Source: a virus (taxonomy: Duplodnaviria > Heunggongvirae > Uroviricota > Caudoviricetes). Taken from it: 38,064 nucleotides of DNA. Location: the IMG/VR virus record IMGVR_UViG_2526164598_000023; one strand, 5' to 3'. The first letter of the stretch is position 1. Every line of letters starts with the position of its first letter. Positions 18,857 to 36,819 of this stretch are shown here, piece by piece. A program made the translations under genes and the position numbers. The notes beneath the pieces were generated by a model. The model made no database searches and was not told the DNA's origin. It saw only the letters and a list, made by a program, of their open reading frames with translations.

Positions 18857-20333
18857 GCAGACGCCCCCAGATATTTGTCACAAAGAGAATGCGGGCCAGC
18901 CGCTCCTGCAGATCGTCCGTGTTCATCTGAGGGTAGAGCTCCGCCAGTTCGCCCAGCAGCTCAGACGGGTTAACCCCATTTTCGACCCGCCTGAACAGAG
19001 GTGCCAGGACGGGTTCCAGCGTGCCATTTAACGCGCCTCCGTTCATCAGAATGTCCAGCGCGTCGTCAAGCTGCTGCTGAGCCTGAATATCAGCATCAAT
19101 CGCCTCGGCAAATGACAGCGGCAGCATGTTATTCTGTCGTTCCGACGGTGGTGTCTCGTCAATATCGCCGTCCTGCAGTTGGTACTCACGCTTGAAGTAC
19201 TGCGGGGTCAGACGCAGACCCGCCCGGGTGAGTTTTTCGTCGCGGGTGGCACGGGTGTCATCAATGGCCTCCTGTTCCCACATGGCCCAGACCGGACACG
19301 GCACATCGCCGAAGTTCAGGGTGACCACCGTTCTGATGACCTGATTCACTGCCGCCTGAATGATGTCCGCATCCGCATCGCGGATATCAGCCGTTACCTC
19401 CAGCCCGGCCTGTGCAGAGGCCTTGTTACTGTTCGCTTCCGTGGTCTGATTCTGACCGAGTAATGCAATGGAGATCTCACTGCGTGACAGTGTGATCAGC
19501 TCGCGGAATACCTCGCTGCTGTCCGCCTTACCATCCGCGGCTTTGAGTTCGATGCTGCTGTCATCGGGGATGGCGGCCACCGCGTCCTCCACCATCTGCT
19601 CCATGGAGTCCAGCAGTTTTTCAATCTCTGCATCATTTGCACCCCTCGGGTGCTTACCGATCACCCACGGGGAGCCAAACTTTTCGGCAAAGCGGAGCCA
19701 GAATTTCATCCCGCCTTTCTTGAAGGCGACCGGCCAGAAGCACATGGACAGGTCCGGGAAACCGTAAGGATTGTCATACGAGGCATCCTGTGCCGGCACC
19801 ACGAATTTTGACGGTGACAGCAGCTCACCCTCCACACCCGCATCACGCGCCCGGAAGCGCAGGCAGTTGTCCGTATCAAACTGAAACCACTCAGGCGGTT
19901 TGCCGACAATATCCGTCACCGCCCACGACCTGACCGAACGGCCCCACATGATTTCACAGGGCTGATACCCGTAGAGCACGGCATCGCTCATTTCACCGAT
20001 GATGCGGGACAGATCCAGATCGTCGAGCATGTCGCGGATGAAACGGAAGACCCGGGCAGAGGCGTGACCACGCTCCAGTCCACGCTCCAGCGATTTAAGC
20101 GCTGCTTTACGTCTGCGGATACAGCCCCCGACCAGCGGGTCGGTGCGCAGTTCGCGGTAGATACGGATATCCCGTCCCTGAGCCTTGAGAATGGGATCAG
20201 GATTGGGCAGATACATGCCCAGTCCGTAAAAGTCGATCGCGCGGCTGCGGGAGGCAATCTGCGCGGTCAGTGATTTCTGAGGCTCAGAAAAAGCAACAAA
20301 TTCATCGGGTGAAACCCAGATACCCCTCGCCAT
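18837..20333 (-). CDS. Portal protein (Mu gp29-like), 498 aa
   Basis: Size and position immediately after the terminase large subunit. Confidence 0.7.
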   Translation of the reverse strand: MARGIWVSPDEFVAFSEPQKSLTAQIASRSRAIDFYGLGMYLPNPDPILKAQGRDIRIYRELRTDPLVGGCIRRRKAALKSLERGLERGHASARVFRFIRDMLDDLDLSRIIGEMSDAVLYGYQPCEIMWGRSVRSWAVTDIVGKPPEWFQFDTDNCLRFRARDAGVEGELLSPSKFVVPAQDASYDNPYGFPDLSMCFWPVAFKKGGMKFWLRFAEKFGSPWVIGKHPRGANDAEIEKLLDSMEQMVEDAVAAIPDDSSIELKAADGKADSSEVFRELITLSRSEISIALLGQNQTTEANSNKASAQAGLEVTADIRDADADIIQAAVNQVIRTVVTLNFGDVPCPVWAMWEQEAIDDTRATRDEKLTRAGLRLTPQYFKREYQLQDGDIDETPPSERQNNMLPLSFAEAIDADIQAQQQLDDALDILMNGGALNGTLEPVLAPLFRRVENGVNPSELLGELAELYPQMNTDDLQERLARILFVTNIWGRLHERDNG

Positions 20334-21928
20334 CAGAATCCCTCCAGCATACGGGCCGCCTGACGACGACGGCGTGAGCTTGCCTTCACCGGCCCTTTGT
20401 TAATTTCACGGCTGGCGAAATACGCCAGCGCCAGTGCGATGGCTGAATCCCCGTGGCGTTTACCACCGTCAGCCTTTGCTTTTGAGCGTTGCTCCGGTAC
20501 GCGGGGGACACCGTTCACCACCTGAACGGCCCGCAGGTCATCCAGTGTGTCTTCATCCTTTGGTAAGTCCACCAGGTTACCGTCTTCCAGTGCAGCTTTG
20601 ACCGGAGGCATATGCTCCCGGTACCAGCCTTCGGTTGGCATCACCTGCTGAACCCGGCTGGAGCCGTAGCGCTGCATGGCGTATTCAGCCAGATAGGCAC
20701 CATTACCACGGGCATCAAACGCTGCACCCAGCAGACCGGGCAGGCCATCCATCAGATACCAGGTGATTTGCTCCTGCTGTCTGAACGGCACGTTACGCAG
20801 CTCCAGTACGAATGGCACGCGTCGTACCAGGTTCTTCTCCTGCAGCAGGGGATAGTCCACCGACAAATCACCGCTACGGCCAAAGTCGCGCCCCAGGAAA
20901 GAGCGGGCATCAGTGGGGAGTGCCTCCAGCAAGGGTTTCAGATACTCATCAAGCCAGTCCTGCGTCTCGCGGAAGCGAACCTCATCAGACAGCAGTTCAT
21001 AACCTTCCTTGCAGGTCAGACGCAATACCGGCGTATCAGCGGACATGCGGGACTCTATCAGGGCACGGGACAGCCAGGCACCGCCACCGTTGGCCGGAAT
21101 ACAGTCAAGCTCTTCGGATGCGCCGGCACCGTAGAATTTGTACACCGATGCCATCCAGGCCTGCTCGGATGCCTCCGACCATTCCTTCCCGGTGCGCAGA
21201 CAGACGCGCCGGAACAGCCCCTCAGATACGGCTTCCCGGAAAGTGATGCGATGTATGCTGCCTCCCTGACGTCCGGCACGGATATCCCCGATAAGCGTAT
21301 TGAACGGATTGTCGTCACCGTTATGGGTGGAGATAACGCGTACCTTTCCCCCCCAGATAAGCATCGCCAGCGCCGCTTTCAGCAGTTCGTCCAGTTGCTC
21401 ATGGAACGCCGCTTCGTCGATAACAATAATACCCTGACGGCCACGCAGGTTAGACGGGCGGCTGGAGAGCGCAACAATACGAAAGCCGGAGTCAGGAAAT
21501 TTGATGGTGTAAGTCCTGATGTGTTTGTCGTCGTCGTCCTCTTCCCAGAATCCTTCTTCAATTTCACTGGCCGCATAGTTGAATGCCCGTGCCCACATCG
21601 CACACGCCTGAATGTATTCGACGGTCATGTCCTGGTTATAAGCGATGTAATACACATTCATCCCGCCTGCTGGCGCAGAAGAGGCGGCGGTCAGTACGTT
21701 ATCGGATGCCTCAGCCCATGTAATACCGGTACGACGGCTCTTTTCTATCACCTTAAGCGGAGAGGTGTCTGCCACCCAGCGCTGCTGGTAAGGCAACAGA
21801 ACGGGAGGGGCATCCAGCGCCGAGGTATCAGGCAAAACGGGAGCAAGGTTATTCCTCCCGTCCATGGGACTCATCCCTTCGGGGCCGCCGCCAGCGGCGT
21901 TTAAAATCACTCCGGATGATTTTGTCAT
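20333..21928 (-). CDS. Terminase large subunit (Mu gp28-like), 531 aa
   Basis: Walker-B-like GIIVIDEAAFH and C-terminal nuclease-like region; start overlaps the upstream gene by 4 nt. Confidence 0.75.
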   Translation of the reverse strand: MTKSSGVILNAAGGGPEGMSPMDGRNNLAPVLPDTSALDAPPVLLPYQQRWVADTSPLKVIEKSRRTGITWAEASDNVLTAASSAPAGGMNVYYIAYNQDMTVEYIQACAMWARAFNYAASEIEEGFWEEDDDDKHIRTYTIKFPDSGFRIVALSSRPSNLRGRQGIIVIDEAAFHEQLDELLKAALAMLIWGGKVRVISTHNGDDNPFNTLIGDIRAGRQGGSIHRITFREAVSEGLFRRVCLRTGKEWSEASEQAWMASVYKFYGAGASEELDCIPANGGGAWLSRALIESRMSADTPVLRLTCKEGYELLSDEVRFRETQDWLDEYLKPLLEALPTDARSFLGRDFGRSGDLSVDYPLLQEKNLVRRVPFVLELRNVPFRQQEQITWYLMDGLPGLLGAAFDARGNGAYLAEYAMQRYGSSRVQQVMPTEGWYREHMPPVKAALEDGNLVDLPKDEDTLDDLRAVQVVNGVPRVPEQRSKAKADGGKRHGDSAIALALAYFASREINKGPVKASSRRRRQAARMLEGF

Positions 21929-22470
21929 GTGGCAATCCCCAGAATCTCGCGACGAAGCGCCTGTACTGCGTCGCTTGACAGTCCCCCCTTACGGGCAATT
22001 TTCTCGGCGTTGCTGGCTGCCTGCTGCGCTCTGGCCCGTACTTCAGACTGGAACTTTTTGAGGTTGACGGACGCGCGGGACAGCGTAGCCACATTCTTCG
22101 CCACCTTCGACAGCAGGGCCACGCGTTCTTTAGGATCGACTTCACCTTCTTCCGCCTCCTGCAACTGGACAATACTCTCGAACAGCTCGGTCTGAATAAG
22201 GGCTATCACAGCCTCCGAACGCGCATCCTGATCGTCTGCTGCGCCTTCGGTCAGCATGCGGGCCGCTTCTGTTGCCGCACGGATAGCACCATAGCGGCGC
22301 TCAATCTTCTGTCCATAGCGATGGATAGCGGATTTGCTGATGACGTACCCCCGCTCACGCAGCAGGGACTCCAGCTCGTTATACCCGCTGAAGCCGGATT
22401 CAGTCAGCGCCCGTTCAAGCCAGCGGCGCACGTCTTCCGGCAGCTTTTCTATTGTGCTGCGTCTGGCCAT
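21925..22470 (-). CDS. Putative terminase small subunit-like DNA-binding protein (Mu gp27-like), 181 aa
   Basis: N-terminal HTH-like region, coiled-coil C-terminus; directly upstream of the terminase. Confidence 0.5.
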   Translation of the reverse strand: MARRSTIEKLPEDVRRWLERALTESGFSGYNELESLLRERGYVISKSAIHRYGQKIERRYGAIRAATEAARMLTEGAADDQDARSEAVIALIQTELFESIVQLQEAEEGEVDPKERVALLSKVAKNVATLSRASVNLKKFQSEVRARAQQAASNAEKIARKGGLSSDAVQALRREILGIAT

Positions 22471-22781
22471 TATTCACTCCAGTACTTTTCCGGGCGGGCA
22501 ATACCCGGACCACATTCCACGGTGTATTCCACCAGGTCTACGCCGAGGCGGGTCAGGTCAGCAAACCAGTCGCCAGAAGGTTTTTTCTCCAGCTCAACCA
22601 TTTTACGGTCAGCCAGATAATCCAGTTCGCGGCGCAGTTCCAGCGGTGTGGTGTCCGGGTAGATGGCGCGGGACACGTCCAGCAGCAACGTTTCACTGGC
22701 GGTGTAAGGGCGGGTTTTGTTCAGGGCAACCAGCAAACTCCAGCGCAGGGATTCGCGGCGTACCCGGGTAATATCGACCAT
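22470..22781 (-). CDS. Hypothetical protein, 103 aa (Mu gp26 position)
   Basis: ORF with start/stop coupling to neighbours. Confidence 0.45.
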   Translation of the reverse strand: MVDITRVRRESLRWSLLVALNKTRPYTASETLLLDVSRAIYPDTTPLELRRELDYLADRKMVELEKKPSGDWFADLTRLGVDLVEYTVECGPGIARPEKYWSE

Positions 22782-23107
22782 TATTGACCTCCGGTATTGC
22801 GGTACTGCTGTACCACTTCCAGTTTGTTATAAAGCGCGTCCAGTTTGGCCTCGATGACTGTCTGGCCACGGATATAATCCTCGCGACGGACATAATTCAG
22901 CGGTAAATCCGCTTTAAATCGCATAAATTCTTTTTCCAGCTCGCCCCAGTTGGAGGCGGACTGTTGCAGGGCCTGTTCAAGGGAGGCGAATCGTGCCGCC
23001 TGGCGTTCTTCTGTTTTACTGAACAACCATTTGGCGAGCCCTCCCACAAACCCCATGAAGGTGAGCAGAAAACTCACCACCGTCCAGAATTCAACCTGCA
23101 GTGTCAT
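22781..23107 (-). CDS. Small membrane protein with N-terminal TM helix, 108 aa (candidate releasin-like lysis accessory)
   Basis: TM helix FWTVVSFLLTFMGFVGGLAKWLF followed by a coiled-coil-like region; last gene of the lysis cluster. Confidence 0.45.
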   Translation of the reverse strand: MTLQVEFWTVVSFLLTFMGFVGGLAKWLFSKTEERQAARFASLEQALQQSASNWGELEKEFMRFKADLPLNYVRREDYIRGQTVIEAKLDALYNKLEVVQQYRNTGGQ

Positions 23108-23754
23108 TTCTGTAATCCTTCCCGTTCATCCAGTAACGCGTTTATCTGGTTCCGCCAGCGACGACATTGTCCTGCGTTGTCGATGATGTTGGCGAGAACG
23201 TCACGCTGGGAGACACCCGAATCGCGTAACCGGGTGTCAGTGGTTTCAGGTTGCCCGGTCGCTGTGCCAGAGCGGGTGCCAGCGGCGGCAACTGAGTCTG
23301 AATGACCGGTGTCGACGGATGCGTTGTCATATCCGAGTGCGGCGTTGTACTGGCGCACGAAACCGCGAGTAAACACGCACTCAATGGGATGGCTCTTACC
23401 TTTTTCATCAATCCAGCGCTGTGTGACATCGTTAATTTGCCCCTGTAGTTGTTTGTTCCGGCTCTCCAGTTGAGCAATCTGCTCAAGATAACCGGCTTCA
23501 GCCCGCTGCCCGGCGGCCACCTGCTCCTGATACCGTCTGGCCCAGGCCCGCAGCGCAGCATTCTCAAGCGTTGCCTGCTCCGTTTTGTACGCGTCAAATG
23601 CTGACTGCAACTGACTGAGCGCGGTATCACCGTCACGCTTTGCAGAGTCATGACCACTTCTGTATCCCATGGCATACAGGCCGACCAGAAAGGCATTGAT
23701 AAGAATGGCCAGCAGAATGCCGCGCCACGGCAGCTTTTTAACCAGATGCCGCAC
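23104..23754 (-). CDS. i-spanin-like protein (start uncertain; GTG at 23752-23754 proposed)
   Basis: N-terminal TM (ILLAILINAFLVGLYAMGY) then a long coiled-coil-like periplasmic domain. The track start at 23856 would overlap the endolysin gene by about 118 nt. Confidence 0.5.
   Translation of the reverse strand: MRHLVKKLPWRGILLAILINAFLVGLYAMGYRSGHDSAKRDGDTALSQLQSAFDAYKTEQATLENAALRAWARRYQEQVAAGQRAEAGYLEQIAQLESRNKQLQGQINDVTQRWIDEKGKSHPIECVFTRGFVRQYNAALGYDNASVDTGHSDSVAAAGTRSGTATGQPETTDTRLRDSGVSQRDVLANIIDNAGQCRRWRNQINALLDEREGLQK
23142..23408 (-). CDS. o-spanin-like lipoprotein nested in another frame inside the i-spanin gene, 88 aa
   Basis: ATG at 23406-23408; MKKVRAIPLSACLLAVSC has a signal peptide and lipobox-like LAVSC, followed by a Pro-rich mature region. 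Confidence 0.55.
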   Translation of the reverse strand: MKKVRAIPLSACLLAVSCASTTPHSDMTTHPSTPVIQTQLPPLAPALAQRPGNLKPLTPGYAIRVSPSVTFSPTSSTTQDNVVAGGTR

Positions 23755-24472
23755 AACTGCTGCCTCCCCATGTGAGATATCGCGGTGCCAGTTCGCGCAG
23801 GATGCGCTGCGGATAATGGCGGTTCTCCCGCCAGCTGGCCGCATTGCGTCCGGCATTCACCGTGGCGACATGTCCGAACCAGCGGGTGCTGTCCAGACCT
23901 TTCTGTGATGCAAGCCGCCTGTCCCGTTGTACCCAGCCCAGACCACCGTTATAGCCCGACAGTGTCATGGCCATACGCTCGCAGTCACTGGCGGCGCTGA
24001 CACGCTGCCACAGCCAGCGGTCATAGCTGACCAGCGCCCGGATAGCCCATGCCGGATTAAACGGCTCACGACTGCTCAGCATCGGTATCAACTGGCTTAT
24101 CCAGTCGGCAGTGGCAGGCATGAACTGCGCCAGTCCCTGAGCGCCAGCCGGCGAGATCGCATCAGGTCGCCAGCCGCTTTCCTGATGCAGTTGCGCGGCG
24201 AAATCGGCCACCGGCGCAGACAGTCCCCATTCAAGCCGGGCATTACGGATCACATCATCGCGATACTGCAGCGCAGCCTGCGGGGGCTGCGCTGCGCATG
24301 CCTGGCTGAAAAAGCCGCCACACCAGAGCAGCCAGACAATCACCAGGTTGCCAGCAAGCTGCCACCAGAAGCTGTATTTATCGTTACGTGGTTCTCCGTG
24401 TCTGATGGCGGTTACGCCCAGACCAAAGGCGAACAGAATAATGAGGGTGATTTGAGGCCAGTTCATGGTCAC
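23738..24472 (-). CDS. Lytic transglycosylase (SLT domain) endolysin with N-terminal membrane anchor, 244 aa
   Basis: Two N-terminal hydrophobic helices followed by an SLT-type catalytic region with QLHQESGW and AQGLAQFMPATA. Confidence 0.8.
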   Translation of the reverse strand: MTMNWPQITLIILFAFGLGVTAIRHGEPRNDKYSFWWQLAGNLVIVWLLWCGGFFSQACAAQPPQAALQYRDDVIRNARLEWGLSAPVADFAAQLHQESGWRPDAISPAGAQGLAQFMPATADWISQLIPMLSSREPFNPAWAIRALVSYDRWLWQRVSAASDCERMAMTLSGYNGGLGWVQRDRRLASQKGLDSTRWFGHVATVNAGRNAASWRENRHYPQRILRELAPRYLTWGGSSCAASG

Positions 24473-24819
24473 AGTCCTGTTGCCACAGCCAGGCAGACCG
24501 CTGCAACAATCAGTGCACGGCGGATTAACGCAGCAGAAAACACCAGGTGAAGGCCGGTCTGTACCGGGAAACGCCCTTCAGCCATCAGCCTGTCGTCATG
24601 TTTCAGGTACTGACCGGGACGGGCTTTGGGGAAGAGCGAACGGTCAAGCCAGTAACCCAGCACTGCTGCCAGCGTGATAAGTGCCAGCTTGTAGATCACA
24701 ACAGGCAACTGCTGTGGCGAGACCAGAGCGATGATGCCCAGCAACAGCACTGAGGTCAGCAGCCAGCCGCTGAGGCGAGGTTTTTTAACAGGGGGAATGA
24801 ATTTTTTCAGGTTTTTCAT
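24469..24819 (-). CDS. Putative holin, three predicted TM segments, 116 aa
   Basis: Start placed at ATG 24817-24819 (MKNLKKF...) with AGGAG RBS; the stop overlaps the endolysin start by 4 nt. Confidence 0.4.
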   Translation of the reverse strand: MKNLKKFIPPVKKPRLSGWLLTSVLLLGIIALVSPQQLPVVIYKLALITLAAVLGYWLDRSLFPKARPGQYLKHDDRLMAEGRFPVQTGLHLVFSAALIRRALIVAAVCLAVATGL

Positions 24820-24933
24820 GTGTGTCTCCTCGTTTGGTGGAGACAGCATCACAAATGTGGCGGGATACGGATTTTAAACAGCGTTAATAGTGAAGATGTA
24901 AACGTGCACTGCATGATGACTTTGAAAGAACGA

Positions 24934-24961
24934 CCAGCCCGGTACCCGAACACCGGGCTGG
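24934..24961 (-). terminator. GC-rich stem-loop (10-bp stem, 8-nt loop), possible insulator/terminator upstream of the late operon
   Basis: CCAGCCCGGT-acccgaac-ACCGGGCTGG; on the minus strand it is followed by TCGTTCTTTC. Confidence 0.3.
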
Positions 24962-25007
24962 CCATCGCCCCACAGGAATGCGCTGTGAGCCGACCGAGGT
25001 TCAGTCA

Positions 25008-25019
25008 GTCTCGCGAGAC
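25008..25019. promoter_or_regulatory. Perfect 12-bp palindrome GTCTCGCGAGAC upstream of the methyltransferase gene
   Basis: Self-complementary 12-mer about 48 nt upstream of the ATG at 25067; TATAAT hexamer at 25042-25047. Confidence 0.25.
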
Positions 25020-25066
25020 CAGACTAGCCTGCCATATTTTTTATAATTGTAAAAGGCTTACAGATT

Positions 25067-25837
25067 ATGAAAATGCAGACATTACCCATCGTTCCATGGA
25101 TTGGTGGCAAACGCCGCCTTGCAAAACACATCCTGCCGCTGTTTCCGGCGCATGAATGTTATGTGGAGCCGTTTTGTGGGGCAGCAGCGCTCTATTTTCT
25201 TAAGGTACCCGGCAAGATCGAAGTCATTAATGATATCAACGGTGAACTGGTGAACCTGTATCGGGTGGTAAAACATCATCTGGAAGAATTTGTACGCCAG
25301 TTCAAATGGGCGCTGGTCAGCCGGCAGATCTACAAATGGCTGCAGATCACCCCGGAAGAAACACTGACGGATATCCAGCGTGCAGCACGGTTCTACTACC
25401 TTCAGAAGCAGGCGTTTGGAGGCAAGGTGGCGGAGCACAGCTTTGGTACCTCCACCATATCCCCGCCACGCTTCAACCTGCTGCGTATTGAAGAAGAACT
25501 GTCAGCGGCACACCTGCGGCTTTCCAGAACGGTCATAGAACACATGGACTGGCAACAGTGCATAGAACGATATGATCGCCCGCATACGTTGTTCTACTGT
25601 GACCCTCCATACTGGGGAACGGAAGGTTATGGTGTGGAGTTCGGACTAGAAAATTATGATCATATGGCAGATTTAGCACGCAGGATCAAAGGGAAGATGA
25701 TTATATCGGTGAACGATATCCCGGAAATGCGGCAGGCATTCAACGGTCTAAATATTCAGTCGGTTGATATCAGCTACAACCTCAAGATCACTGGCAAATC
25801 CAGTCGCAAGAAGGAACTCATTATCCTCAACTTTTGA
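25067..25837 (+). CDS. N6-adenine DNA methyltransferase, Dam-like, orphan (no adjacent restriction endonuclease), 256 aa
   Basis: AdoMet motif EPFCGAAALYF near the N-terminus and catalytic DPPY (YCDPPYWGTEGYG). Confidence 0.85.
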   Translation: MKMQTLPIVPWIGGKRRLAKHILPLFPAHECYVEPFCGAAALYFLKVPGKIEVINDINGELVNLYRVVKHHLEEFVRQFKWALVSRQIYKWLQITPEETLTDIQRAARFYYLQKQAFGGKVAEHSFGTSTISPPRFNLLRIEEELSAAHLRLSRTVIEHMDWQQCIERYDRPHTLFYCDPPYWGTEGYGVEFGLENYDHMADLARRIKGKMIISVNDIPEMRQAFNGLNIQSVDISYNLKITGKSSRKKELIILNF

Positions 25838-27032
25838 CCGAATAGTAAGACTTCATGCAGTGAATCAAGTACTGCATGAAGTCAAGGGCTGGTTTTGTGT
25901 ACCAAAAATAAACAGTGATAGCGGTAATAATTCCCATAACTAGAACACCACGTATAATCCAGAACGTACGTTTCTGCGTGTCTAGTCGCGCAGAAATACT
26001 GCTAAATACACCAGCCACGTCATCTTTAATGAAGGAATATTCCTTATTAATCTGTTTTTCTTTGTATTCAATTTCTTCGCCTAAGGCCTTTATAGATTGC
26101 ATCTGGTTCGAAAGTGCCAGCCAGATTAACGTTGCAGCAAAAATGCATCCCAGAAGAATTATTGTGTTTGTTATCCCTTGGCCTGACCATTTCGTAGCCA
26201 CTTTGAATTGGGTAGCTACGATAACAGAGGCAACAGGAATGCCAAGTATATGGTTCTGGATATCTGAAAACGCTTTGTGGATTTTACCCATTTCTTCGAC
26301 TTTTGCAGCACGCAGTTGATCCATTACTTTGTCATAAGAGAATCCAGAAGAGTAGATACGATACCCTTTCAGAAACTTTTCATGCAGACGCTGAATATTG
26401 TCCAGTAAATAAGCGAATACTAGAGGTGAATCAATTCCATCACTAACTGCTTGGATACTTTCAATCAGAATATCTAGCTTCTGATCCTTATGGGTATCAT
26501 CATTGAAACAAGCTATAAGGTTATCAAGATACTCTCTTTGCAAATTTTGTACATTTTCTGCAGCGAAGTGCGGTAATAGCTTGATAACTTCTTTTTTCAG
26601 AAAAACTAACTGACAAGTTGAGTTATCAAAGTAGGCCGCGGCCTCTTTTAGCAGGTTAACGAACTCGAGAATCTTCCGGTAGTTGCTGATGAAAACGGGG
26701 ATATCTTCATCATCATTACGAAACTTTGTTTCTAGGATGAAGTAATTAGCTGGCTCAAGGCACTGATGCTTTGGAGCATTTAGCAATTTTTCATGGGTGG
26801 AAAACACAAGTCCCAGTCCACTCCGTGGTGACGTCACACGTAGGATGATCGTGTTACCTGGAGCGATAGTGCCTGTATCAATAGAAAGACCATATTCACG
26901 AGGATCATCAAGCAAAGTATCAACCAGATCACAATCGGACTGATCTAAGAGCAACAGCGAACCGACACGAAACCCCTCTTGGAATTCCATACGACGATAC
27001 AGATCTGTCAGCATCTCAAATGAAATCGCCAC
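25827..27032 (-). CDS. Membrane protein with soluble N-terminal domain and two C-terminal TM helices, 401 aa
   Basis: GTG start at 27030-27032 two nt after the upstream stop, with a GAGG RBS (alternative ATG at 27014). TM helices ITNTIILLGCIFAATLIWLALS and FWIIRGVLVMGIITAITVYFWY; AT-rich codon usage. Confidence 0.65.
   Translation of the reverse strand: MAISFEMLTDLYRRMEFQEGFRVGSLLLLDQSDCDLVDTLLDDPREYGLSIDTGTIAPGNTIILRVTSPRSGLGLVFSTHEKLLNAPKHQCLEPANYFILETKFRNDDEDIPVFISNYRKILEFVNLLKEAAAYFDNSTCQLVFLKKEVIKLLPHFAAENVQNLQREYLDNLIACFNDDTHKDQKLDILIESIQAVSDGIDSPLVFAYLLDNIQRLHEKFLKGYRIYSSGFSYDKVMDQLRAAKVEEMGKIHKAFSDIQNHILGIPVASVIVATQFKVATKWSGQGITNTIILLGCIFAATLIWLALSNQMQSIKALGEEIEYKEKQINKEYSFIKDDVAGVFSSISARLDTQKRTFWIIRGVLVMGIITAITVYFWYTKPALDFMQYLIHCMKSYYSVKS
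25849..25883. repeat. Perfect 13-bp inverted repeat with 9-nt spacer
   Basis: GACTTCATGCAGT-gaatcaagt-ACTGCATGAAGTC, 12 nt past the methyltransferase stop and inside the last codons of the convergent 401-aa gene, at the boundary where composition becomes AT-rich. Confidence 0.7.
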
Positions 27033-27034
27033 GA

Positions 27035-28042
27035 TTAAACCTCAGTCATCCACATTTCCCTAAATTCTTCAGGTACATTACGTAGGGTGATAATATTTGT
27101 TTCCGGATCATAATCAATATAGCCTTCAGTTTTCCCTTCCCGGTCAAACTTAAGTTCCCAATATTTAGACTTGCCTTTAAAAGATACCAGAGCCCGAATG
27201 ACTCGACCATCAGGAACGAAGCCATCCGATAACTCCAACTCTTCAGCAGCAAGTTTACCAGATAACTCCTCGGGAGCCTGGGGCCAAATGGCATTAACAA
27301 GGGTTTCAAGACTAAGTGGTTCACCAGCCTTACTTAGTGCATGTAAGTGTTCAAACGCACTCTTAAGAAATGCATCTTTTTCAGCGCCGTCAAGTCCTTT
27401 CTCTGCCGCAAATGCTTTTAAAACGTCACGTAACTTTTCAGACTCTCGTTTGGCGATTAAGACATCATTACAGCCGAGGAACTGTTTAAAATAGTTTGAA
27501 ACATTACCTTGCCCCTTAAGAAAACTGATATAGCGCTCTGCGCCACTTTCCCACGCGGTTAAGTCAATGCGCCCAGCCATACGCAGCTTAGCAATATCAA
27601 GATAGGTACTATCTTGGATGTTAAAATCATCTGTGACAGTGGATCCAATGGTAGCGCTTACAATAGCTATCAACAGGTGTTCATTGTGTCCTATCACGAT
27701 ATTTGCAAAAAGAACATAACCACCAGTAGCCATGTTTTCTCGCTGAGAACGTTCCGTCAGGTGATGCATCATTCGGCAGGAACTTTGGTAGAAATCATCA
27801 ACACCTTCGAGAAAGTCCCCAGCCATTCGTTCCATAGGATAGTTATCCGTATCGCCTTCAAAATAGCCATAACCTTTACCTGTGCGTCCTGCATATTTTG
27901 CACAAATATCGTTTATAAGGCGCTGGGAGGCTTCAGTAACTAGACCTTCTTCAGGACTCAATCTCTCAGAAGCGTCTCCATTTTGTTGTTTGTCTAAAAT
28001 GTGAACTACAACGTGTTTAACTTCAATGGTCTGCTCAGACAT
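27035..28042 (-). CDS. NdpA/YejK-like nucleoid-associated protein homologue, 335 aa
   Basis: Segments GGYVLFANI..HLLIAIVS, YLDIAKLRMAGRIDLTAWESGAERYISFLKGQ and the C-terminal YIDYDPETNIITLRNVP resemble E. coli YejK as I remember it; same length (335 aa). ATG 28040-28042 with AAGGTGGA RBS. Confidence 0.65.
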   Translation of the reverse strand: MSEQTIEVKHVVVHILDKQQNGDASERLSPEEGLVTEASQRLINDICAKYAGRTGKGYGYFEGDTDNYPMERMAGDFLEGVDDFYQSSCRMMHHLTERSQRENMATGGYVLFANIVIGHNEHLLIAIVSATIGSTVTDDFNIQDSTYLDIAKLRMAGRIDLTAWESGAERYISFLKGQGNVSNYFKQFLGCNDVLIAKRESEKLRDVLKAFAAEKGLDGAEKDAFLKSAFEHLHALSKAGEPLSLETLVNAIWPQAPEELSGKLAAEELELSDGFVPDGRVIRALVSFKGKSKYWELKFDREGKTEGYIDYDPETNIITLRNVPEEFREMWMTEV

Positions 28043-28112
28043 TAGCTATCCACCTTATTTTTTATTGCTTAATGGCAAATAATTTCTGCTATATGTTCTC
28101 GTTAGGAACACA

Positions 28113-28520
28113 TTAACCCACATTTTTTAACCGCTCAATCGTTGCGGATAATTCCTTCAGTTGTTTTTCCATCTCAATCACACGCTGTTTTTCTTCAGCG
28201 CCTCGCATGAGATCTCGCCGAACCTCAGGATCTAACTGGTTTAGAAGTTCAAGCATTTTAAGGTCTGACGGGCTGAATTGATGTTGTGTTGGTACAGCAA
28301 CAATTTCTTTAGATGGAATATGTTCTTTACCGGTAAGTAGCCAATCGATCGATACACCCAAATGGGTGCTTAGCGCAACAAGAGCCTCTGCGTTTGGTTC
28401 TCTCTCTCCACGCAAATAGTTTTGAAGTGAGCGATATGGAATTTTTGATAAGTTAGATAATGCCTTTATTGTCATGCCATTAGCATCCATCACTTCACGC
28501 AATCTCTCTTTTGTACTCAT
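28113..28520 (-). CDS. Phage repressor, HTH (XRE-like), 135 aa
   Basis: Start moved to ATG 28518-28520 (MSTKERLREVMDANGMTIKALSNLSKIPYRSLQNYLRGER), an HTH; divergent from the ner-like gene. Confidence 0.7.
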   Translation of the reverse strand: MSTKERLREVMDANGMTIKALSNLSKIPYRSLQNYLRGEREPNAEALVALSTHLGVSIDWLLTGKEHIPSKEIVAVPTQHQFSPSDLKMLELLNQLDPEVRRDLMRGAEEKQRVIEMEKQLKELSATIERLKNVG

Positions 28521-28539
28521 TTGAACATATCTCAATTTG

Positions 28540-28559
28540 ACACACTCATTTGGGTGTGT
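28540..28559. promoter_or_regulatory. Candidate operator dyad ACACAC-N8-GTGTGT in the repressor/ner divergent region
   Basis: 6-bp inverted arms separated by 8 nt, centred between the two divergent starts. Confidence 0.3.
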
Positions 28560-28608
28560 ACAATAGACCCAATAGAGTACATCATAACCTAACAGGAACA
28601 CGGTGCAT

Positions 28609-28833
28609 ATGAACAAACAACAAGTTCGGGCACGGCTGGTTGAACGAGGCAGTAGCTTGCGCCAGTTCGCGCTTAACGCGGGCTATGAACCACGAACAGT
28701 CACCCAGGCAGTCAGTCGCTGGGCTGGTAAAAGTGAACTACCTCGCGGTCGTTTGACTTATCGGATTTTGCGAGATCTATCGGTTGCAATAGGTAAAGAA
28801 GTTACCCCCGGTATCCTTAAGGAGGCGTCATGA
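28609..28833 (+). CDS. ner: Ner-like DNA-binding protein, 74 aa
   Basis: MNKQQVRARLVERGSSLRQFALNAGYEPRTVTQAVSRW... matches the Mu Ner family; ATG 28609 with AGGAA RBS (the track start at 28603 is GTG). Confidence 0.7.
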   Translation: MNKQQVRARLVERGSSLRQFALNAGYEPRTVTQAVSRWAGKSELPRGRLTYRILRDLSVAIGKEVTPGILKEAS

Positions 28834-29138
28834 ATAAACCAAATACATCAAGCTCAGGTACCCGTATTTTGCGCGTTCTTAAGGCCTTACGTGGCCACGC
28901 TTTGAACGGTGTTTCTAACGGGGAACTAGCGGTTGCACTGCACGAATCACCGGCAAACATCAACCGGGCACTTAACACGCTCATTGAAGAAGGGTTGGCT
29001 CTGAAACTAGAAAACGGGCGTTTCGCACCAGGCATCCAGTTGCTGCAGATCGCCATGGCCCACAGTAACGAGATGGCACGTGCACAGGATCGCATTAACG
29101 AAATCAACCAACGTGTTATTTCAGGTAGTCGTTTGTAA
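28830..29138 (+). CDS. Winged-helix DNA-binding protein, 102 aa
   Basis: ILRVLKALRGHALNGVSNGELAVALHESPANINRALNTLIEEGL resembles a MarR/IclR-type wHTH. Confidence 0.5.
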   Translation: MNKPNTSSSGTRILRVLKALRGHALNGVSNGELAVALHESPANINRALNTLIEEGLALKLENGRFAPGIQLLQIAMAHSNEMARAQDRINEINQRVISGSRL

Positions 29139-29148
29139 GGAGTAATCA

Positions 29149-30060
29149 ATGGGACGCACCAAATCACCGGTTAGCACTGAACTGAACGTCGAGGTACCGC
29201 TGTCGGATGATCTCAATGTCAGTCTAAACGCCATGACACAGCATCGCATGGAAATCATGCAACAGTTCGGCGATGGTCTGCCCTATGAGCGCGATCGTGT
29301 TGTCCATGAGGCACGCTTTTATATGGCACAGAGCGCTGAGGCCATGCTGGAGGCAGGTAAGCGGCTGATAATCCTTAAGGAAAATGAACCACACGGGGAG
29401 TTTATAAAGATTCTTGAAAGTGAGTTGGGGCTGGCATACCGGACATCTGTGAGAATGATGCAAGCATCGACAAAATACTTATCCCCGGCGCTGAAACCAA
29501 ATGTGCCAACGTTGGCACATTTGGGAAAAGCCAAACTTTTCGAATTAATGACAGAAGACGACGAAGAGCTTGCCGAACTGGCCGACGGCGGCACAGTTGC
29601 CGGCCTGACGCTTGACGACGTTGATCGCATGTCAGTACGTGAATTGCGTCAGGCCCTGCGCGAAGCGCGCGAAACCAACGCAGCACAACAGCGCGTACTC
29701 GCTGACAAAAATGAAAAAATAGACTCACTCTCCACCAGACTGGAGAAGAAATCCCGTATTCAGCCGCCTGAGCCTGATGAAGAGGTTAAGAAGCTGCGGG
29801 CGGAAGTGACAGCATTAGCGGTTGAGGCGGAATCTGCTATCGCCGTTCGACTGTCCAGCGCTTTTGAGACGCTGTGCGCATATTGTGCTGAAAACATGAT
29901 TGATACCCCCAGAGACTTCATGGCAGGCCTGGTCTGTCAACTGGAAAGCACAGCGCGTAGCCTGCGCTCCACATTTGACCTGCCGGATGAGCCAACAGGC
30001 AATGCCGCGCCTTCATGGCTGACTGAGCCGACGCCACAGATTAACGGGCTGGAGGCATAA
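29149..30060 (+). CDS. Hypothetical protein, 303 aa
   Basis: ORF between the wHTH gene and the transposase; no recognised catalytic motif. Confidence 0.5.
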   Translation: MGRTKSPVSTELNVEVPLSDDLNVSLNAMTQHRMEIMQQFGDGLPYERDRVVHEARFYMAQSAEAMLEAGKRLIILKENEPHGEFIKILESELGLAYRTSVRMMQASTKYLSPALKPNVPTLAHLGKAKLFELMTEDDEELAELADGGTVAGLTLDDVDRMSVRELRQALREARETNAAQQRVLADKNEKIDSLSTRLEKKSRIQPPEPDEEVKKLRAEVTALAVEAESAIAVRLSSAFETLCAYCAENMIDTPRDFMAGLVCQLESTARSLRSTFDLPDEPTGNAAPSWLTEPTPQINGLEA

Positions 30061-30063
30061 CCA

Positions 30064-31833
30064 ATGAATGCTGCCCTGACTGAACGACTGGTTTATGTCG
30101 CCCGCGCGGCACGTGACGCGGGGCATGGTAAACGCGGTGCAATATACGACGCTGCCTGTGCTGAACTTGGCATGTCCCGCGCCACTCTGCTGCGCAGGCT
30201 GAAGGAGGTCTCTGTGACTGATAAACGCAAAAAACGCGCTGATGCCGGACGCAGCGCCCTGACCCGCGACGAAGCCGCGCTGATATCTGCCACACTGCGT
30301 GAGGCCACCCGCAAGAACGGTAAGCGTCTCTATTCCATCGCGGATGCAGTGGAAACCCTGCGGGCTAACGGCTTTATCTCCGCAGGCAGAACAGATGAAA
30401 CCACCGGTGAGTTTTTCCCGTTGTCCGAAGATGCCATCAGTCGTGCCCTGCGTAACTATGGCCTGCACCCGGAACAACTGGATGCTCCTGCGCCGCATAC
30501 CGAAGTGGCCAGTCTGCATCCCAATCATGTCTGGCAGATTGATGCCTCGCTCTGCACGCTTTACTACCTGAGCAATGGACACAAAGGGCTGCAGGTGATG
30601 GACAGCGCGAAGTTCTACAAGAACAAACCCGCTAACCTTGCCCGTATCGCCAGTGACCGCGTGTGGAGTTACGAGATTACCGACCATGCCAGCGGCTGGA
30701 TTTACGTTGAGTATGTGACGGGTGCGGAATCCGGTGAGAACCTGTGTTCTGTGCTTATCAACGCCATGCAGGAGCGTGGCGGCGCAGACGTGCTGCACGG
30801 CGTGCCAAAAATACTCTATCTCGACCCCGGTTCGGCAAACACCGCGGGTATGACGAAAAACATGTGCCGCTCACTGGGCATTGACCTGATAGCGCACAAG
30901 CCGCATAACGCCCGCGCCACCGGACAGGTGGAAAAGGCGCGTGACATTATCGAACGCAAGCTGGAGCCGGGTCTGAAGTTCCGGCCGGTTCACAGTCTGG
31001 AAGAACTCAACGCGCTGGCCGCGAAATGGCGCAGCCACTTTAACGCCACGGCTGTTCACAGCCGCCACGGTAAAACCCGCACGGATATCTGGCTGAAGAT
31101 TACTGCTGAGCAGCTGAAAAAAGCGCCTTCCGTTGAGGTATGTCGTGAACTGGCTGTGGCGGCACCAGAACTCCGCAAAGTCACGCCAAAACTTCGTGTC
31201 TCGTTCCGGGGCACTGAATTTGACGTATCAACGGTACCGGGCGTACTGGTCGGTGAAAAACTGATGATTACCCGTAACCCGTGGCGCAGCGATGTGGCAC
31301 AGGTGGTTCTGACCGGTGAGGACGGCCACGAGACGTTCTTCCTGGTCGAAGAGGTCAGAAAGAACGAGTTTGGCTTTGCTGAAGGCGCGGCGGTATTTGG
31401 CGAAAGTTACAAAGCCCTGCCGGAAACCCCGGCGCAGATGGCGGCAAAAGAAACCGAAGCGCTGGTCACCGGTACAGACAACGCCGCAGATGCAGCTGCC
31501 GCACGCAAGGCGAAGGCGCTGCCGTTCGGCGGGCGGCTTGACCCGTATAAACATATTGATGACGCCACACTTCCGGCCTATATGCCGAAGCGAGGTCAGG
31601 CCTCTGACGTACGCGGACCGCGCACTGAACAGCGTCCCATGACTCATGTGGAGGCCGCGAAAGCCCTGCGCGGGAAGTTCAGCGCCAACGGCCTTACCTG
31701 GACGCCGGAACATTACCGCCAGTTAACGGCACAGTACCCGGACGGCGTACCGGAAGCCGCACTGGATGAAGTCATGGCCACGCTGACCACGCCGGCCCGC
31801 AGCAGTGTTATCAGCATTGTTAACGGCAACTGA
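30064..31833 (+). CDS. DDE transposase (Mu A-like), 589 aa
   Basis: Candidate DDE residues in HVWQIDAS, ILYLDPGSANTAG and ATGQVEKARD; N-terminal HTH-like region; followed by an AAA+ gene. Confidence 0.8.
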   Translation: MNAALTERLVYVARAARDAGHGKRGAIYDAACAELGMSRATLLRRLKEVSVTDKRKKRADAGRSALTRDEAALISATLREATRKNGKRLYSIADAVETLRANGFISAGRTDETTGEFFPLSEDAISRALRNYGLHPEQLDAPAPHTEVASLHPNHVWQIDASLCTLYYLSNGHKGLQVMDSAKFYKNKPANLARIASDRVWSYEITDHASGWIYVEYVTGAESGENLCSVLINAMQERGGADVLHGVPKILYLDPGSANTAGMTKNMCRSLGIDLIAHKPHNARATGQVEKARDIIERKLEPGLKFRPVHSLEELNALAAKWRSHFNATAVHSRHGKTRTDIWLKITAEQLKKAPSVEVCRELAVAAPELRKVTPKLRVSFRGTEFDVSTVPGVLVGEKLMITRNPWRSDVAQVVLTGEDGHETFFLVEEVRKNEFGFAEGAAVFGESYKALPETPAQMAAKETEALVTGTDNAADAAAARKAKALPFGGRLDPYKHIDDATLPAYMPKRGQASDVRGPRTEQRPMTHVEAAKALRGKFSANGLTWTPEHYRQLTAQYPDGVPEAALDEVMATLTTPARSSVISIVNGN

Positions 31834-31843
31834 GGAGGAAAAC

Positions 31844-33010
31844 ATGCTGGTACTGAAGCAGCAACTGAAAGAGGCCCGTATTTCACAGGCGGTGGTGGCG
31901 AGAGCTGTCGATGTTTCTGAGGCCACGCTGGCCCAGATTGTGAATCATAACGCGTGGCCCCGCACCAGCCCCGGAGAAGTGCGCCGGCGTCTTGCGTCCT
32001 GGCTGGAAAGTCAGGGGATTGATACAGCGAAGAGTTTTGATGCTGTACAGGGCGCGGCCACGCCCCGTACATCGGGTACCACAGATAAAACGAGCCTCAG
32101 TGAGGAAGAGAATATGTTACTCAAAAAACAGGTGTTATTTCCAGCAACCAAAAAAGCGTTTGGTCTTTTCCGTGACCCGTTCGCCGACGAAGCCATGCAG
32201 GGTTCTGATGATGTGTTCACCACCCCGGACATTCGCTACGTGCGTGAGGCGTTGTACCAGACAGCACGTCATGGTGGGTTTATGGCCGTCATCGGTGAGT
32301 CCGGTGCGGGTAAATCCACGCTGCGCCGTGACCTGACTGAACGTATCAACCGCGAGAATGCGCCAGTGATTGTTATCGAGCCATACATCATCGCTATGGA
32401 AGACAACGATGTGAAAGGGAAAACTCTGAAGGCAGCAGCGATTGCCGAAGCCATTATCAGTACCATCGCACCACTGGAAAGCATCAGACGCAGTCAGGAC
32501 GCCCGCTTTCGCCAGTTGCATCGCGTCCTGAAAGACAGCAGCCAGGCGGGGTTCAGCCACGTTCTGGTGATTGAGGAGGCCCACAGTCTGCCCATTCCGA
32601 CACTGAAACACCTCAAACGCTTTTTTGAGCTGGAGTCCGGTTTCAAAAAACTGCTGTCCATCGTGCTAATTGGTCAGCCGGAACTGGCGACAAAACTGTC
32701 TGAACGCAATATGGAAGTCCGTGAAGTCGTTCAGCGCTGTGAGGTGGTCGAACTTCTGCCTCTGGACAATAACCTTGAAGAATTTCTGACGTTCAAACTG
32801 CAACGGGCCGGTAAACAACTGACGGACATTATGGACGCCAGCGCAGTGGATGCCATACGTGCCCGCCTGAGCAATCCGGGAAGTCATCGTAAAAATATGG
32901 TCAGCCTGCTGTATCCGCTGGCCGTCAGTAACCTGGTAATAGCCGCCATGAATCTGGCTGCTGAAATCGGGGTTCCACAGGTCAACGCTGACGTTGTCAA
33001 AGGGGTTTAA
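31844..33010 (+). CDS. Transposition ATPase (MuB-like AAA+), 388 aa
   Basis: Walker A GESGAGKST and Walker B VLVIEEAH; start placed at ATG 31844 with GAGGAGGA RBS. Confidence 0.8.
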   Translation: MLVLKQQLKEARISQAVVARAVDVSEATLAQIVNHNAWPRTSPGEVRRRLASWLESQGIDTAKSFDAVQGAATPRTSGTTDKTSLSEEENMLLKKQVLFPATKKAFGLFRDPFADEAMQGSDDVFTTPDIRYVREALYQTARHGGFMAVIGESGAGKSTLRRDLTERINRENAPVIVIEPYIIAMEDNDVKGKTLKAAAIAEAIISTIAPLESIRRSQDARFRQLHRVLKDSSQAGFSHVLVIEEAHSLPIPTLKHLKRFFELESGFKKLLSIVLIGQPELATKLSERNMEVREVVQRCEVVELLPLDNNLEEFLTFKLQRAGKQLTDIMDASAVDAIRARLSNPGSHRKNMVSLLYPLAVSNLVIAAMNLAAEIGVPQVNADVVKGV

Positions 33011-33012
33011 TA

Positions 33013-33282
33013 ATGAAATCCACCACAGGTATCAACCAGCAAATCAGCAAAGTGCAGTCAGCCATTATGGCGCTTAAGGCGACGAACACGGATGTACAAA
33101 GCATCACCATCAGGGGGAACAAACCTGTCATCCGCGTTTCCCGGAGTGCGCATTGCATGCGCATGCTTGAGCAGGGAAAGGCCTGTTATCTGTATACCGG
33201 ACATGACCACAGGGGATATTTCCGTCAGGGCGTTTTCGAACTGCACGGCTGTCGCGTCGTGTGGCCGGAATCTTTGTGGTAA
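33013..33282 (+). CDS. Hypothetical protein, 89 aa (position equivalent to Mu kil)
   Basis: ORF immediately after the B-like gene. Confidence 0.4.
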   Translation: MKSTTGINQQISKVQSAIMALKATNTDVQSITIRGNKPVIRVSRSAHCMRMLEQGKACYLYTGHDHRGYFRQGVFELHGCRVVWPESLW

Positions 33283-33309
33283 TCAGCACAACCGGAGAAA
33301 TCATAAAAA

Positions 33310-33840: not shown

Positions 33841-33937
33841 ACACACCACGTTAATTATTTAATAAAAACATTTTCTTTTTTATTCCGGCGTCAGCGCCGT
33901 GGGCTTCTGCACGCCGGAAACAGAGGAGAATTAAATT

Positions 33938-34401: not shown

Positions 34402-34410
34402 GGGCGCAGC

Positions 34411-36631: not shown

Positions 36632-36659
36632 TATCTGCAATCAGGCTGGAGCGAGTTCT

Positions 36660-36792
<133 letters not shown>

Positions 36793-36819
36793 CAGAAATG
36801 TCGGATAAGGCACCGCTGA

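Follow-up and report, generated by a model that had tools for sequence, protein, structure and literature searches.

The question raised by this locus is whether one stretch of DNA in a prophage lysis cassette encodes two proteins, namely an inner-membrane spanin subunit (i-spanin) and, in another frame of the same gene, a small lipoprotein acting as its outer-membrane partner (o-spanin). The window, i.e. the whole stretch of 38,064 nucleotides that was analysed, is a transposable prophage resembling BcepMu. It occurs in 637 of the 5426 complete E. coli genomes (~12%), and a 97.9%-identical sequence is deposited as the Escherichia phage genome record PhiKM, classified in Bcepmuvirus. Taking homology, motif, position and selection together, the two ORFs very probably form a two-component spanin pair in embedded arrangement, which would be the last functional unit of the holin/endolysin/spanin lysis cassette of this prophage. 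A scan of the minus strand recovered both ORFs of the initial annotation (Table 1), the putative o-spanin ORF lying wholly inside the i-spanin ORF in a different frame, and the structural reading proposed there, an architecture like that of lambda Rz/Rz1, is correct. The o-spanin start lies 346 nt into the i-spanin gene, in the +1 frame. The ORF is fully embedded, its end falling 38 nt short of the final base of the i-spanin stop codon.

Table 1. Coordinates in the window of the candidate spanin genes, their features and the neighbouring lysis genes
Feature	Position	Strand	Remarks
Holin	24469..24852	-	First cassette gene; PF13272 Holin_2-3, E 6e-41; 52% identity to BcepMu gp21
SLT-type lytic transglycosylase endolysin	23738..24472	-	Directly upstream of i-spanin; PF01464, E 1.7e-14; phrog_669; 61% identity to BcepMu gp22
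i-spanin	23104..23754	-	216 aa, GTG start; phrog_1403 'Rz-like spanin', E 1.3e-91
i-spanin TM anchor	23662..23718	-	Residues 13-31, ILLAILINAFLVGLYAMGY; Kyte-Doolittle maximum 2.15 (19-residue window from residue 12)
Possible o-spanin translation-initiation region	23427..23444	-	AGGGG 23440..23444, 10-nt spacer, ATG 23427..23429
Putative o-spanin gene	23142..23408	-	88-aa precursor, +1 frame of i-spanin; alternative in-frame start 23429
Predicted o-spanin signal peptide and lipobox	23355..23408	-	MKKVRAIPLSACLLAVS, then C; PROSITE-type pattern
o-spanin proline-rich core	23226..23291	-	Residues 40-61, LPPLAPALAQRPGNLKPLTPGY; conserved, encoded in the i-spanin disordered linker
BcepMu gp25 homologue	22781..23107	-	N-terminal TM and helical domain; 53% identity to BcepMu25; phrog_462, E 1.6e-36; start overlaps i-spanin stop (ATGA)

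The gene order of the cassette (holin, SLT endolysin, Rz with nested Rz1, gp25, gp26, TerS and TerL) is that of BcepMu. The holin and endolysin genes lie immediately upstream of the pair with overlapping gene ends, and all the cassette genes in the window are intact, their starts and stops overlapping. The initial annotation considered an embedded pair unexpected in a Mu-like lysis cassette. This surprise is unjustified, because the cassette is orthologous to genes 21-25 of BcepMu and not to the cassette of Mu, and the BcepMu record already labels gp24 as 'Rz1, out of frame, embedded proline-rich protein'. The contrast with Mu gp23/gp23.1, a comparison suggested at the same time, is real, the Mu genes being overlapped, but Mu is the wrong comparator. 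The pair is an ordinary, unannotated example of an arrangement already annotated in BcepMu. Downstream of it, the gp25-like gene was also considered as a homologue of the Mu gp25 releasin and rejected, with no BLASTP alignment between the two and an hhalign probability of 0.3%.

The i-spanin gene is annotated in RefSeq at identical coordinates (WP_001216263.1, 'lysis system spanin subunit', a PGAP name). Its GTG start lies 8 nt after GGAGG, and the gene overlaps with the endolysin 3' end over 17 nt and with the following gene through ATGA. The transmembrane segment and coiled coil ascribed to its product from the sequence are borne out by a hydropathy peak over approximately residues 12-30, by predicted long helices and by the phrog_1403 match. 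The protein consists of a basic N-terminal stretch, the TM segment, a long helix (CC1), a short helix, a disordered linker and a C-terminal helix (CC2), the AF2 secondary structure being H10-118, H130-139, a low-confidence part at 144-173 and H183-215, in a model of low overall confidence (mean pLDDT 61). Because the basic residues R2, K6, K7 and R11 precede the TM anchor, positive-inside reasoning suggests an N-in, C-out topology. From hydropathy, AF2/DSSP and phrog_1403, the protein has the features of the i-spanin class, i.e. a type II inner-membrane protein with a single N-terminal TMD and a mostly helical periplasmic domain. Moreover, 507 of 528 known spanin systems have one or more periplasmic Cys, in either subunit, through which intermolecular disulfides could form, and the pair described here has two in the i-spanin, C126 and C197, which are invariant in 18 aligned sequences. 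No spanin model of Pfam (at E <= 0.1) or NCBIfam matched the i-spanin, weak Pfam matches to OmpH and YlqD were discarded as coiled-coil noise, and a PDB sequence search gave no match.

The N-terminus of the o-spanin, MKKVRAIPLSACLLAVSC, fits a lipobox pattern of the PROSITE PS51257 type: a K/R is present among residues 1-7, the lipobox Cys is Cys18 and position +2 is occupied by Ala. The signal peptide and lipobox-like LAVSC motif noticed initially thus pass a formal pattern check. Compared with the strict consensus [LVI][ASTVI][GAS]C, the AVSC lipobox differs at position -3 alone, where it has Ala. Cys18 is the predicted lipidated residue, and since Ala and not Asp occupies position +2, sorting to the outer membrane is predicted. 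By these pattern rules the product has what defines the o-spanin class: it is small, its signal peptide is of the lipoprotein type with a lipobox Cys, and Asp is absent from +2. The mature part of 71 aa contains 15% Pro, in agreement with the Pro-rich region first described, and 28% Ser+Thr. The motif PP.L..RP....PL.PGY is common to this o-spanin and to those of Photorhabdus, B3 and BcepMu. In the enterobacterial clade, the lipidated Cys is the only one of the mature o-spanin, whereas lambda Rz1 and the o-spanins of BcepMu, B3 and Photorhabdus contain a further Cys. Concerning the start site, the ATG at 23408 has a poor Shine-Dalgarno (GGA, 3-nt spacer), and the in-frame ATG at 23429, located 7 codons upstream, has a better-placed AGGGG. 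This second initiation region is conserved in the aligned enterobacterial relatives and, as AGAGG...ATG, in Photorhabdus; for these reasons the true start may be at 23429. The mature lipoprotein is identical with either start.

The nested ORF might nevertheless not be a gene at all, its frame being kept open by the amino-acid composition of the i-spanin and its lipobox having arisen by chance. When synonymous-codon shuffles of the i-spanin served as null model, 36% of them kept the +1 frame free of stops across these 88 codons, so that frame openness alone is not evidence for a gene. In addition, this frame is open over 209 codons in the window, far beyond the proposed gene, and no gene caller annotates the ORF. 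Profile searches with the o-spanin (Pfam, NCBIfam and PHROG) gave nothing usable, and the search of a 5.8-billion-protein collection returned 6 incidental fragments and nothing else, which is why conservation was tested on DNA loci. However, a stop interrupts the frame upstream of 23408 in PhiKM, so that its openness there is not conserved, and a lipobox-bearing ORF of at least 40 aa appeared in only 46 of 20000 shuffles (0.23%). A six-frame scan of the whole 38-kb window gave 5 lipobox pattern matches, among which the nested ORF is the sole one with a canonical charged-then-hydrophobic signal peptide.

For the status of the nested ORF as a genuine gene, the comparative data (conservation and diversity) are decisive. 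The conservation check proposed in the initial annotation came out in its favour: all 15 full-length genomic loci, taken from different species in 11 genera of Enterobacterales and including five Photorhabdus loci at ~40% i-spanin identity, have the ORF and its lipobox intact, as do 78 of 79 IMG/VR loci (viral contigs; 48 distinct sequences), the exception being L093. Altogether, the ORF, its start region and the lipobox Cys are kept in 93 of 94 full-length relatives, down to the i-spanin identity of Photorhabdus. The layout is embedded in 77 of the 78 IMG/VR relatives having the nested ORF, and the lipobox reads AVSC in 67 of these loci, VASC in 7, AASC in 3 and VVSC in 1. The ORF is also found in the PhiKM, KP12, B3 and BcepMu records, its homologues in B3 and BcepMu being nested ORFs with a lipobox, annotated as Rz1 in the latter.

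The i-spanin third-position diversity is 0.34-0.39 before the overlap vs 0.096 within it (Mann-Whitney p = 5e-16), the strong constraint being confined to the overlap, and the flanking genes of the same loci have normal values of 0.21-0.24. In the i-spanin, third-position diversity has already dropped ahead of the nested start, to 0.13 for codons 97-108 and 0.06 for codons 109-120, and in the lipobox/signal-peptide region nucleotide diversity is near nil (0, 0 and 0.06 at the three i-spanin codon positions). In the linker (i-spanin codons 145-180), i-position 1, which is the o-spanin wobble, has a diversity of 0.215 vs 0.086 at i-position 3 (Wilcoxon p = 0.004); the periodicity thus switches to the o-spanin frame, whose wobble becomes the most variable position. 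Recent shared ancestry or mosaicism of the 3' half was considered as a cause of the low diversity in the overlap and rejected, because both flanking genes are normal in third-position diversity and the periodicity switches to the nested frame. The substitution pattern indicates purifying selection on both frames across the clade, and we regard the probability that the nested ORF is not a gene as close to negligible.

A real lipoprotein could also have another job than that of i-spanin partner, such as superinfection exclusion or receptor blocking, as Cor or Llp. Phage lipoproteins with exclusion roles exist, and both the length of the mature part (71 aa vs 40 aa in lambda Rz1) with its Ser/Thr-rich tail and the lack of the periplasmic Cys of lambda Rz1 would agree with such a role. 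This is nonetheless quite improbable, as the ORF lies inside the i-spanin gene of a late lysis operon, a layout known for spanin pairs, the homologous nested ORFs of BcepMu and B3 occupy the same position, and the proline-rich core is the most conserved part of the protein, as in Rz1. Moreover, the i-spanin could not function if the cassette encoded no other o-spanin to pair with it, and no other canonical lipoprotein ORF was detected when the window was scanned in six frames. Finally, the spanins could be genuine and yet unused in this host, if the prophage were decaying and non-inducible. Its residence in 12% of complete E. coli genomes and the occurrence of decayed copies elsewhere (a premature stop in the i-spanin of Candidatus Erwinia dacicola, and L093 without the nested ORF) could be taken in this sense, but the intactness of every cassette gene in the window, the deposition of the nearly identical PhiKM as an Escherichia phage genome and the purifying selection indicated for both frames across the clade make it very unlikely.

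As a functional spanin pair, the two proteins would be made from the same DNA stretch and a single late transcript, the i-spanin being anchored N-in, C-out in the inner membrane with two periplasmic helical regions joined by the disordered linker, and the o-spanin being translated from the internal start in the +1 frame. On the model of lambda Rz/Rz1, they would bind via their C-terminal parts into a periplasm-spanning complex, which the peptidoglycan mesh would restrain. Once the holin and the SLT transglycosylase had destroyed the wall, this complex would collapse, thereby fusing the inner membrane with the outer one and releasing the virions. Lipidation, outer-membrane sorting, complex formation and membrane fusion are the steps of this scheme that we infer from the lambda paradigm.

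Kongari et al. 2018 (PMC6139136) give the spanin genes of Mu/D108 and of the D3112/DMS3 group as overlapped, and those of BcepMu/phiE255 and of the B3/JBD phages as embedded (Tables 3 and 4 therein). The pair resembles BcepMu gp23/gp24 (with phiE255) in the cassette order, the nested +1-frame Rz1 and the proline-rich core motif given above, the i-spanin having 32% identity to gp23 over 118 aa and the o-spanin 39% to gp24 (Rz1) over 56 aa. However, no alignment is obtained for the N-terminal half of the i-spanin. BcepMu Rz1 combines a consensus lipobox, LSAC, with a second Cys in the mature part; the o-spanin has AVSC and lacks this Cys. The hosts also differ, being Enterobacterales here and Burkholderia for BcepMu. 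The alignment with the Rz of Pseudomonas phage B3 (ORF27; B3/JBD25/JBD18/JBD67 family), another transposable phage with an embedded spanin family, extends over the full length of the i-spanin (33% over 207 aa, pairwise E 9e-18), and the nested +1-frame lipobox ORF of B3 is homologous to the o-spanin (40% over 68 aa). B3 differs by an extra small ORF between the endolysin and Rz, and in an ORF scan of its record (AF232233) the nested ORF extends 7 nt past the Rz stop. For membership in one spanin family, Kongari et al. require each subunit to reach 40% identity over 40% or more of its periplasmic domain. Both subunits are homologous to those of BcepMu at identities lying below this cut-off, as does the i-spanin identity to B3, the o-spanin value for B3 being borderline; by that definition, the pair therefore belongs to a separate family related to that of BcepMu.

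With lambda Rz/Rz1, the pair shares an o-spanin located entirely in the +1 frame of the i-spanin gene, the succession of TM, CC1, linker and CC2, and the nature of the o-spanin as a proline-rich lipoprotein. In contrast, there is no detectable sequence similarity, neither subunit matching a Pfam spanin model at E <= 0.1, the mature part of lambda Rz1 is shorter (40 aa vs 71 aa), and an equivalent of its Cys29 is absent. Mu gp23/gp23.1, for which spanin function has been demonstrated (PMC9239132), is likewise a two-component spanin of a transposable phage encoded directly after the endolysin. The gp23.1 lipobox ORF, however, extends ~200 nt past the gp23 stop, and Mu uses a SAR endolysin and a releasin with no holin, whereas the present cassette has a holin and an SLT transglycosylase. 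In BLASTP against the Mu proteins, the i-spanin gave E 0.83 and the o-spanin did not align, so that neither subunit is similar in sequence.

The o-spanin gene is uncalled in the RefSeq and GenBank records inspected, one RefSeq record names the i-spanin 'lipoprotein', and a literature search on the spanins of this E. coli prophage found nothing specific. The novelty is in annotation only, which is also where the practical value lies, the biological significance being small. The embedded arrangement, known from the annotation of BcepMu and the listing of B3, also occurs in many Enterobacterales prophages, where both subunits are intact, and the dual-frame substitution pattern is a clear textbook case of overlapping-gene constraint. 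More speculatively, the enterobacterial and Photorhabdus BcepMu-like prophages may carry a distinct spanin family, which is at most 40% identical to the pairs of BcepMu and B3 where the sequences align, and in which the enterobacterial o-spanin might assemble or act somewhat differently from lambda Rz1, because of its non-consensus AVSC lipobox, its long Ser/Thr-rich tail and its lack of a periplasmic cysteine; we consider this doubtful. If it were true, covalent linkage through the i-spanin alone would be an example of a different assembly, and the overlap, along which the dominant frame alternates, would provide a clean natural model of two proteins sharing one sequence.

The 216-aa i-spanin gene of the window harbors a second ORF, coding for an 88-aa precursor with the features of an o-spanin. 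As proposed in the initial annotation, it lies in a different frame of the i-spanin gene: it begins 346 nt inside, in the +1 frame, and ends 38 nt short of the last base of the i-spanin stop codon, and is therefore fully embedded. Its N-terminus (MKKVRAIPLSACLLAVSC) matches the PROSITE PS51257-type lipobox pattern and positional rules, and the Ala at +2 implies that the product would be sorted to the outer membrane. The sole mismatch to the narrow consensus [LVI][ASTVI][GAS]C is at position -3; o-spanins deviating from this consensus occur, and the deviant lipobox AWAC of a u-spanin family was validated by experiment (Kongari et al. 2018, PMC6139136). The mature protein has 71 aa, of which 15% are Pro and 28% Ser/Thr, in agreement with the lipobox and Pro-rich mature part reported initially. 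The ATG at 23408 is preceded only by GGA, 3 nt away; an alternative in-frame ATG (23429) lies seven codons upstream, with AGGGG 10 nt before it, and the aligned enterobacterial and Photorhabdus loci retain the two start codons as well as the purine-rich box. Either start yields the same mature lipoprotein and leaves the gene embedded. The +1 frame of the window is open over 209 codons (23142..23771, minus strand), nearly the entire i-spanin gene, which exceeds 99.85% of synonymous shuffles; ahead of the o-spanin start the open frame lacks conservation and is interrupted by a stop in phage PhiKM, so that only the last 88-95 codons are gene-like.

Lysis region of the window and adjoining genes
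Feature	Coordinates	Strand	Transcription order	Remark
DNA adenine methylase	25067..25837	+		name given by RefSeq to the identical E. coli locus
Holin	24469..24852	-	first	
SLT-type transglycosylase (endolysin)	23738..24472	-	second	
216-aa ORF (i-spanin)	23104..23754	-	third	GTG start 8 nt after GGAGG
Nested ORF (o-spanin)	23142..23408	-		+1 frame within i-spanin gene
108-aa membrane protein	22781..23107	-	fourth	
103-aa ORF	22470..22781	-	fifth	
Mu gp27-like small terminase	21925..22470	-	sixth	
Large terminase	20333..21928	-	seventh	

All lysis-region genes are on the minus strand, and adjacent ones share a few bases at their ends, as in a tightly coupled late operon; the methylase gene lies directly upstream of the holin gene and is divergent from this operon. 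The i-spanin, whose RefSeq product with the same coordinates is named "lysis system spanin subunit", matches PHROG 1403 "Rz-like spanin" (E 1.3e-91). A basic N-terminus precedes a hydrophobic segment at about residues 13-31, and an AlphaFold model of modest confidence (18 homologues, pLDDT 61) places helices at residues 10-118 (long), 130-139 (short) and 183-215 (C-terminal), with disorder at low confidence over 144-173. This bears out the TM plus coiled-coil layout first described, and the order TM, CC1, linker, CC2 is that of lambda Rz (PMC6139136). The periplasmic C126 and C197 are invariant.

Could the nested ORF be a chance product of i-spanin codon usage? Openness by itself says little, as 36% of synonymous-codon shuffles leave the +1 frame open across the nested 88 codons; just 0.23% of the shuffles produce an ORF with a lipobox. 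In the six frames of the 38-kb window only five ORFs satisfy the lipobox rule, among which the nested one alone has a canonical signal peptide. Such single-sequence evidence for a gene is partial; the comparison of relatives argues for it decisively. Homologues of the i-spanin form 414 protein clusters across Enterobacterales, and DNA loci were compared from species-representative genomes (16) and from IMG/VR (79). The conservation expected of a real gene was found: a +1-frame lipobox ORF occupies the same position in 15/15 full-length genomic loci (covering Pantoea, Erwinia, Mixta, Trabulsiella, Limnobaculum, Symbiopectobacterium, Apirhabdus, Buttiauxella and Pseudocitrobacter, and including five Photorhabdus loci with i-spanin identity of only about 40%), and in the phage records PhiKM, KP12, B3 and BcepMu. 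It is also present in 78 of the 79 IMG/VR loci, which encode 48 different versions of the protein and the lipobox variants AVSC, VASC, AASC and VVSC; the exception is a truncated copy. In the insect symbiont Candidatus Erwinia dacicola (NZ_MAYS01000179.1, 1489..2104; a contig shared with a second compared locus, L089), the i-spanin stops about 17 codons early and the intact nested ORF thus runs beyond it; this copy is probably part of a decaying prophage.

Aligned by codon, 13 enterobacterial sequences show selection on both frames. In the i-spanin gene, diversity at third positions is 0.34-0.39 ahead of the overlap versus 0.096 inside it (Mann-Whitney p = 5e-16). The flanking endolysin and gp25-like genes of these loci vary in the usual way (0.21-0.24 at third positions, far above positions 1 and 2); the drop is thus local and not a product of mosaic ancestry. 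At i-spanin codons 116-134, coding for the signal peptide and lipobox in the nested frame, there is practically no diversity at any of the three positions. At codons 145-180, i-spanin position 1, the wobble position of the nested frame, is the most variable (0.215 versus 0.086 at position 3; Wilcoxon p = 0.004). These codons specify the disordered i-spanin linker and, in the other frame, the conserved proline-rich core LPPLAPALAQRPGNLKPLTPGY; here the nested gene is more constrained than the i-spanin. The pattern mirrors lambda, where insertions are tolerated in the Rz linker and Rz1 is sensitive to mutation in its proline-rich region (PMC6139136).

Over the i-spanin gene the window is identical to E. 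coli chromosomes, the gene being present in 637/5426 complete genomes. Escherichia phage PhiKM (classified Bcepmuvirus) shares 97.9% identity with the cassette, and a record under the name Klebsiella phage KP12 shares 89%. Prophages related to BcepMu were reportedly noted in Salmonella, Photorhabdus and Chromobacterium as early as its 2004 description. BcepMu has the same gene order (holin gp21, SLT endolysin gp22, Rz gp23, gp25, gp26, TerS, TerL), and its gp24 is recorded as "Rz1, out of frame, embedded proline-rich protein". Identity to BcepMu is 52% for the holin, 61% for the endolysin, 53% for gp25, 32% over 118 aa for the i-spanin and 39% over 56 aa for the o-spanin. The "putative Rz lysis protein" of Pseudomonas phage B3, noted in its record as "similar to phage BcepMu Rz and Rz1 proteins", is 33% identical to the i-spanin over its full length, and the B3 nested lipobox ORF is 40% identical to the o-spanin. 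A core PP.L..RP....PL.PGY is common to all these o-spanins, those of BcepMu and B3 included; as a minor peculiarity, the second Cys of the Photorhabdus, BcepMu and B3 o-spanins is lost in the enterobacterial ones. In B3 (AF232233, 2266..2574) the nested ORF, unannotated in that record, ends 7 nt past the annotated Rz stop (2567), making this copy marginally "overlapped" by strict definition, though it is listed as "embedded" (PMC6139136).

The embedded arrangement had been called unexpected for a Mu-like cassette, which holds with respect to Mu itself but not to the BcepMu lineage, where embedding is the annotated norm. Embedded spanins are reported for BcepMu/phiE255 and B3/JBD25/JBD18/JBD67, and overlapped ones for Mu/D108, DMS3/D3112, SuMu and KS10 (Kongari et al. 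2018, PMC6139136). The Mu lipobox ORF gp23.1 begins inside gp23 and continues about 200 nt past its stop; both have been demonstrated to act as spanin subunits (PMC9239132), and no similarity to either is detectable in the window spanins. Since the window belongs to the BcepMu lineage, the confirmed embedded pair is not surprising and the feature is ordinary. By the 40% identity rule of Kongari et al., the pair would form its own family, related to those of BcepMu and B3.

The spanin reading is supported by two frames, motifs, homology, synteny and two-frame selection, and the standard model is the best-supported account. By analogy with lambda, the i-spanin would reside in the inner membrane and the processed, lipidated o-spanin in the outer one, the two forming a C-terminal complex across the periplasm; after holin and transglycosylase action has cleared the peptidoglycan, this complex would fuse both membranes. 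Our literature search found no experiment on this spanin family.

The main novelty is the missing annotation of the o-spanin gene, in the RefSeq E. coli records as well as in those of PhiKM and KP12; the protein is nearly missing from a 5.8-billion-protein collection. In one RefSeq record (NZ_CP025851.1, 301..951) the i-spanin WP_000264664.1 is itself named "lipoprotein", a name also found among the features under the match in many other E. coli genomes; elsewhere the product is called "hypothetical protein" or "lysis system spanin subunit". The nested lipoprotein gene is annotated in none of the records inspected.

Some neighboring features deserve mention. The endolysin has an N-terminal extension of ~65 codons (about 24278..24472), in which hydrophobic segments at about residues 7-22 and 36-56 precede SQACAAQ; this suggests that the enzyme is membrane-tethered or secreted, the holin notwithstanding. 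The extension matches its own PHROG of unknown function (phrog_5479, E 9e-14); BcepMu gp22, ~40 aa shorter, aligns from residue 67 only. The product of the gene after the spanins, 53% identical to BcepMu gp25 and kept as B3 ORF28, has an N-terminal TM segment and a helical domain. Its PHROG family is labeled "lipoprotein", yet it has no lipobox. It has the position of the Mu gp25 "releasin" and a similar layout of N-terminal TM plus soluble domain, but neither sequence nor profile similarity to it (nothing by BLASTP; hhalign probability 0.3%). Finally, alignment with the same prophage elsewhere in E. coli stops near window position 36796, and all 5426 complete genomes match some part of 20000..38064, most likely the stretch beyond 36796; this would place the right end of the prophage at ~36796, on the side of the transposase (integrase-catalytic-domain) genes.
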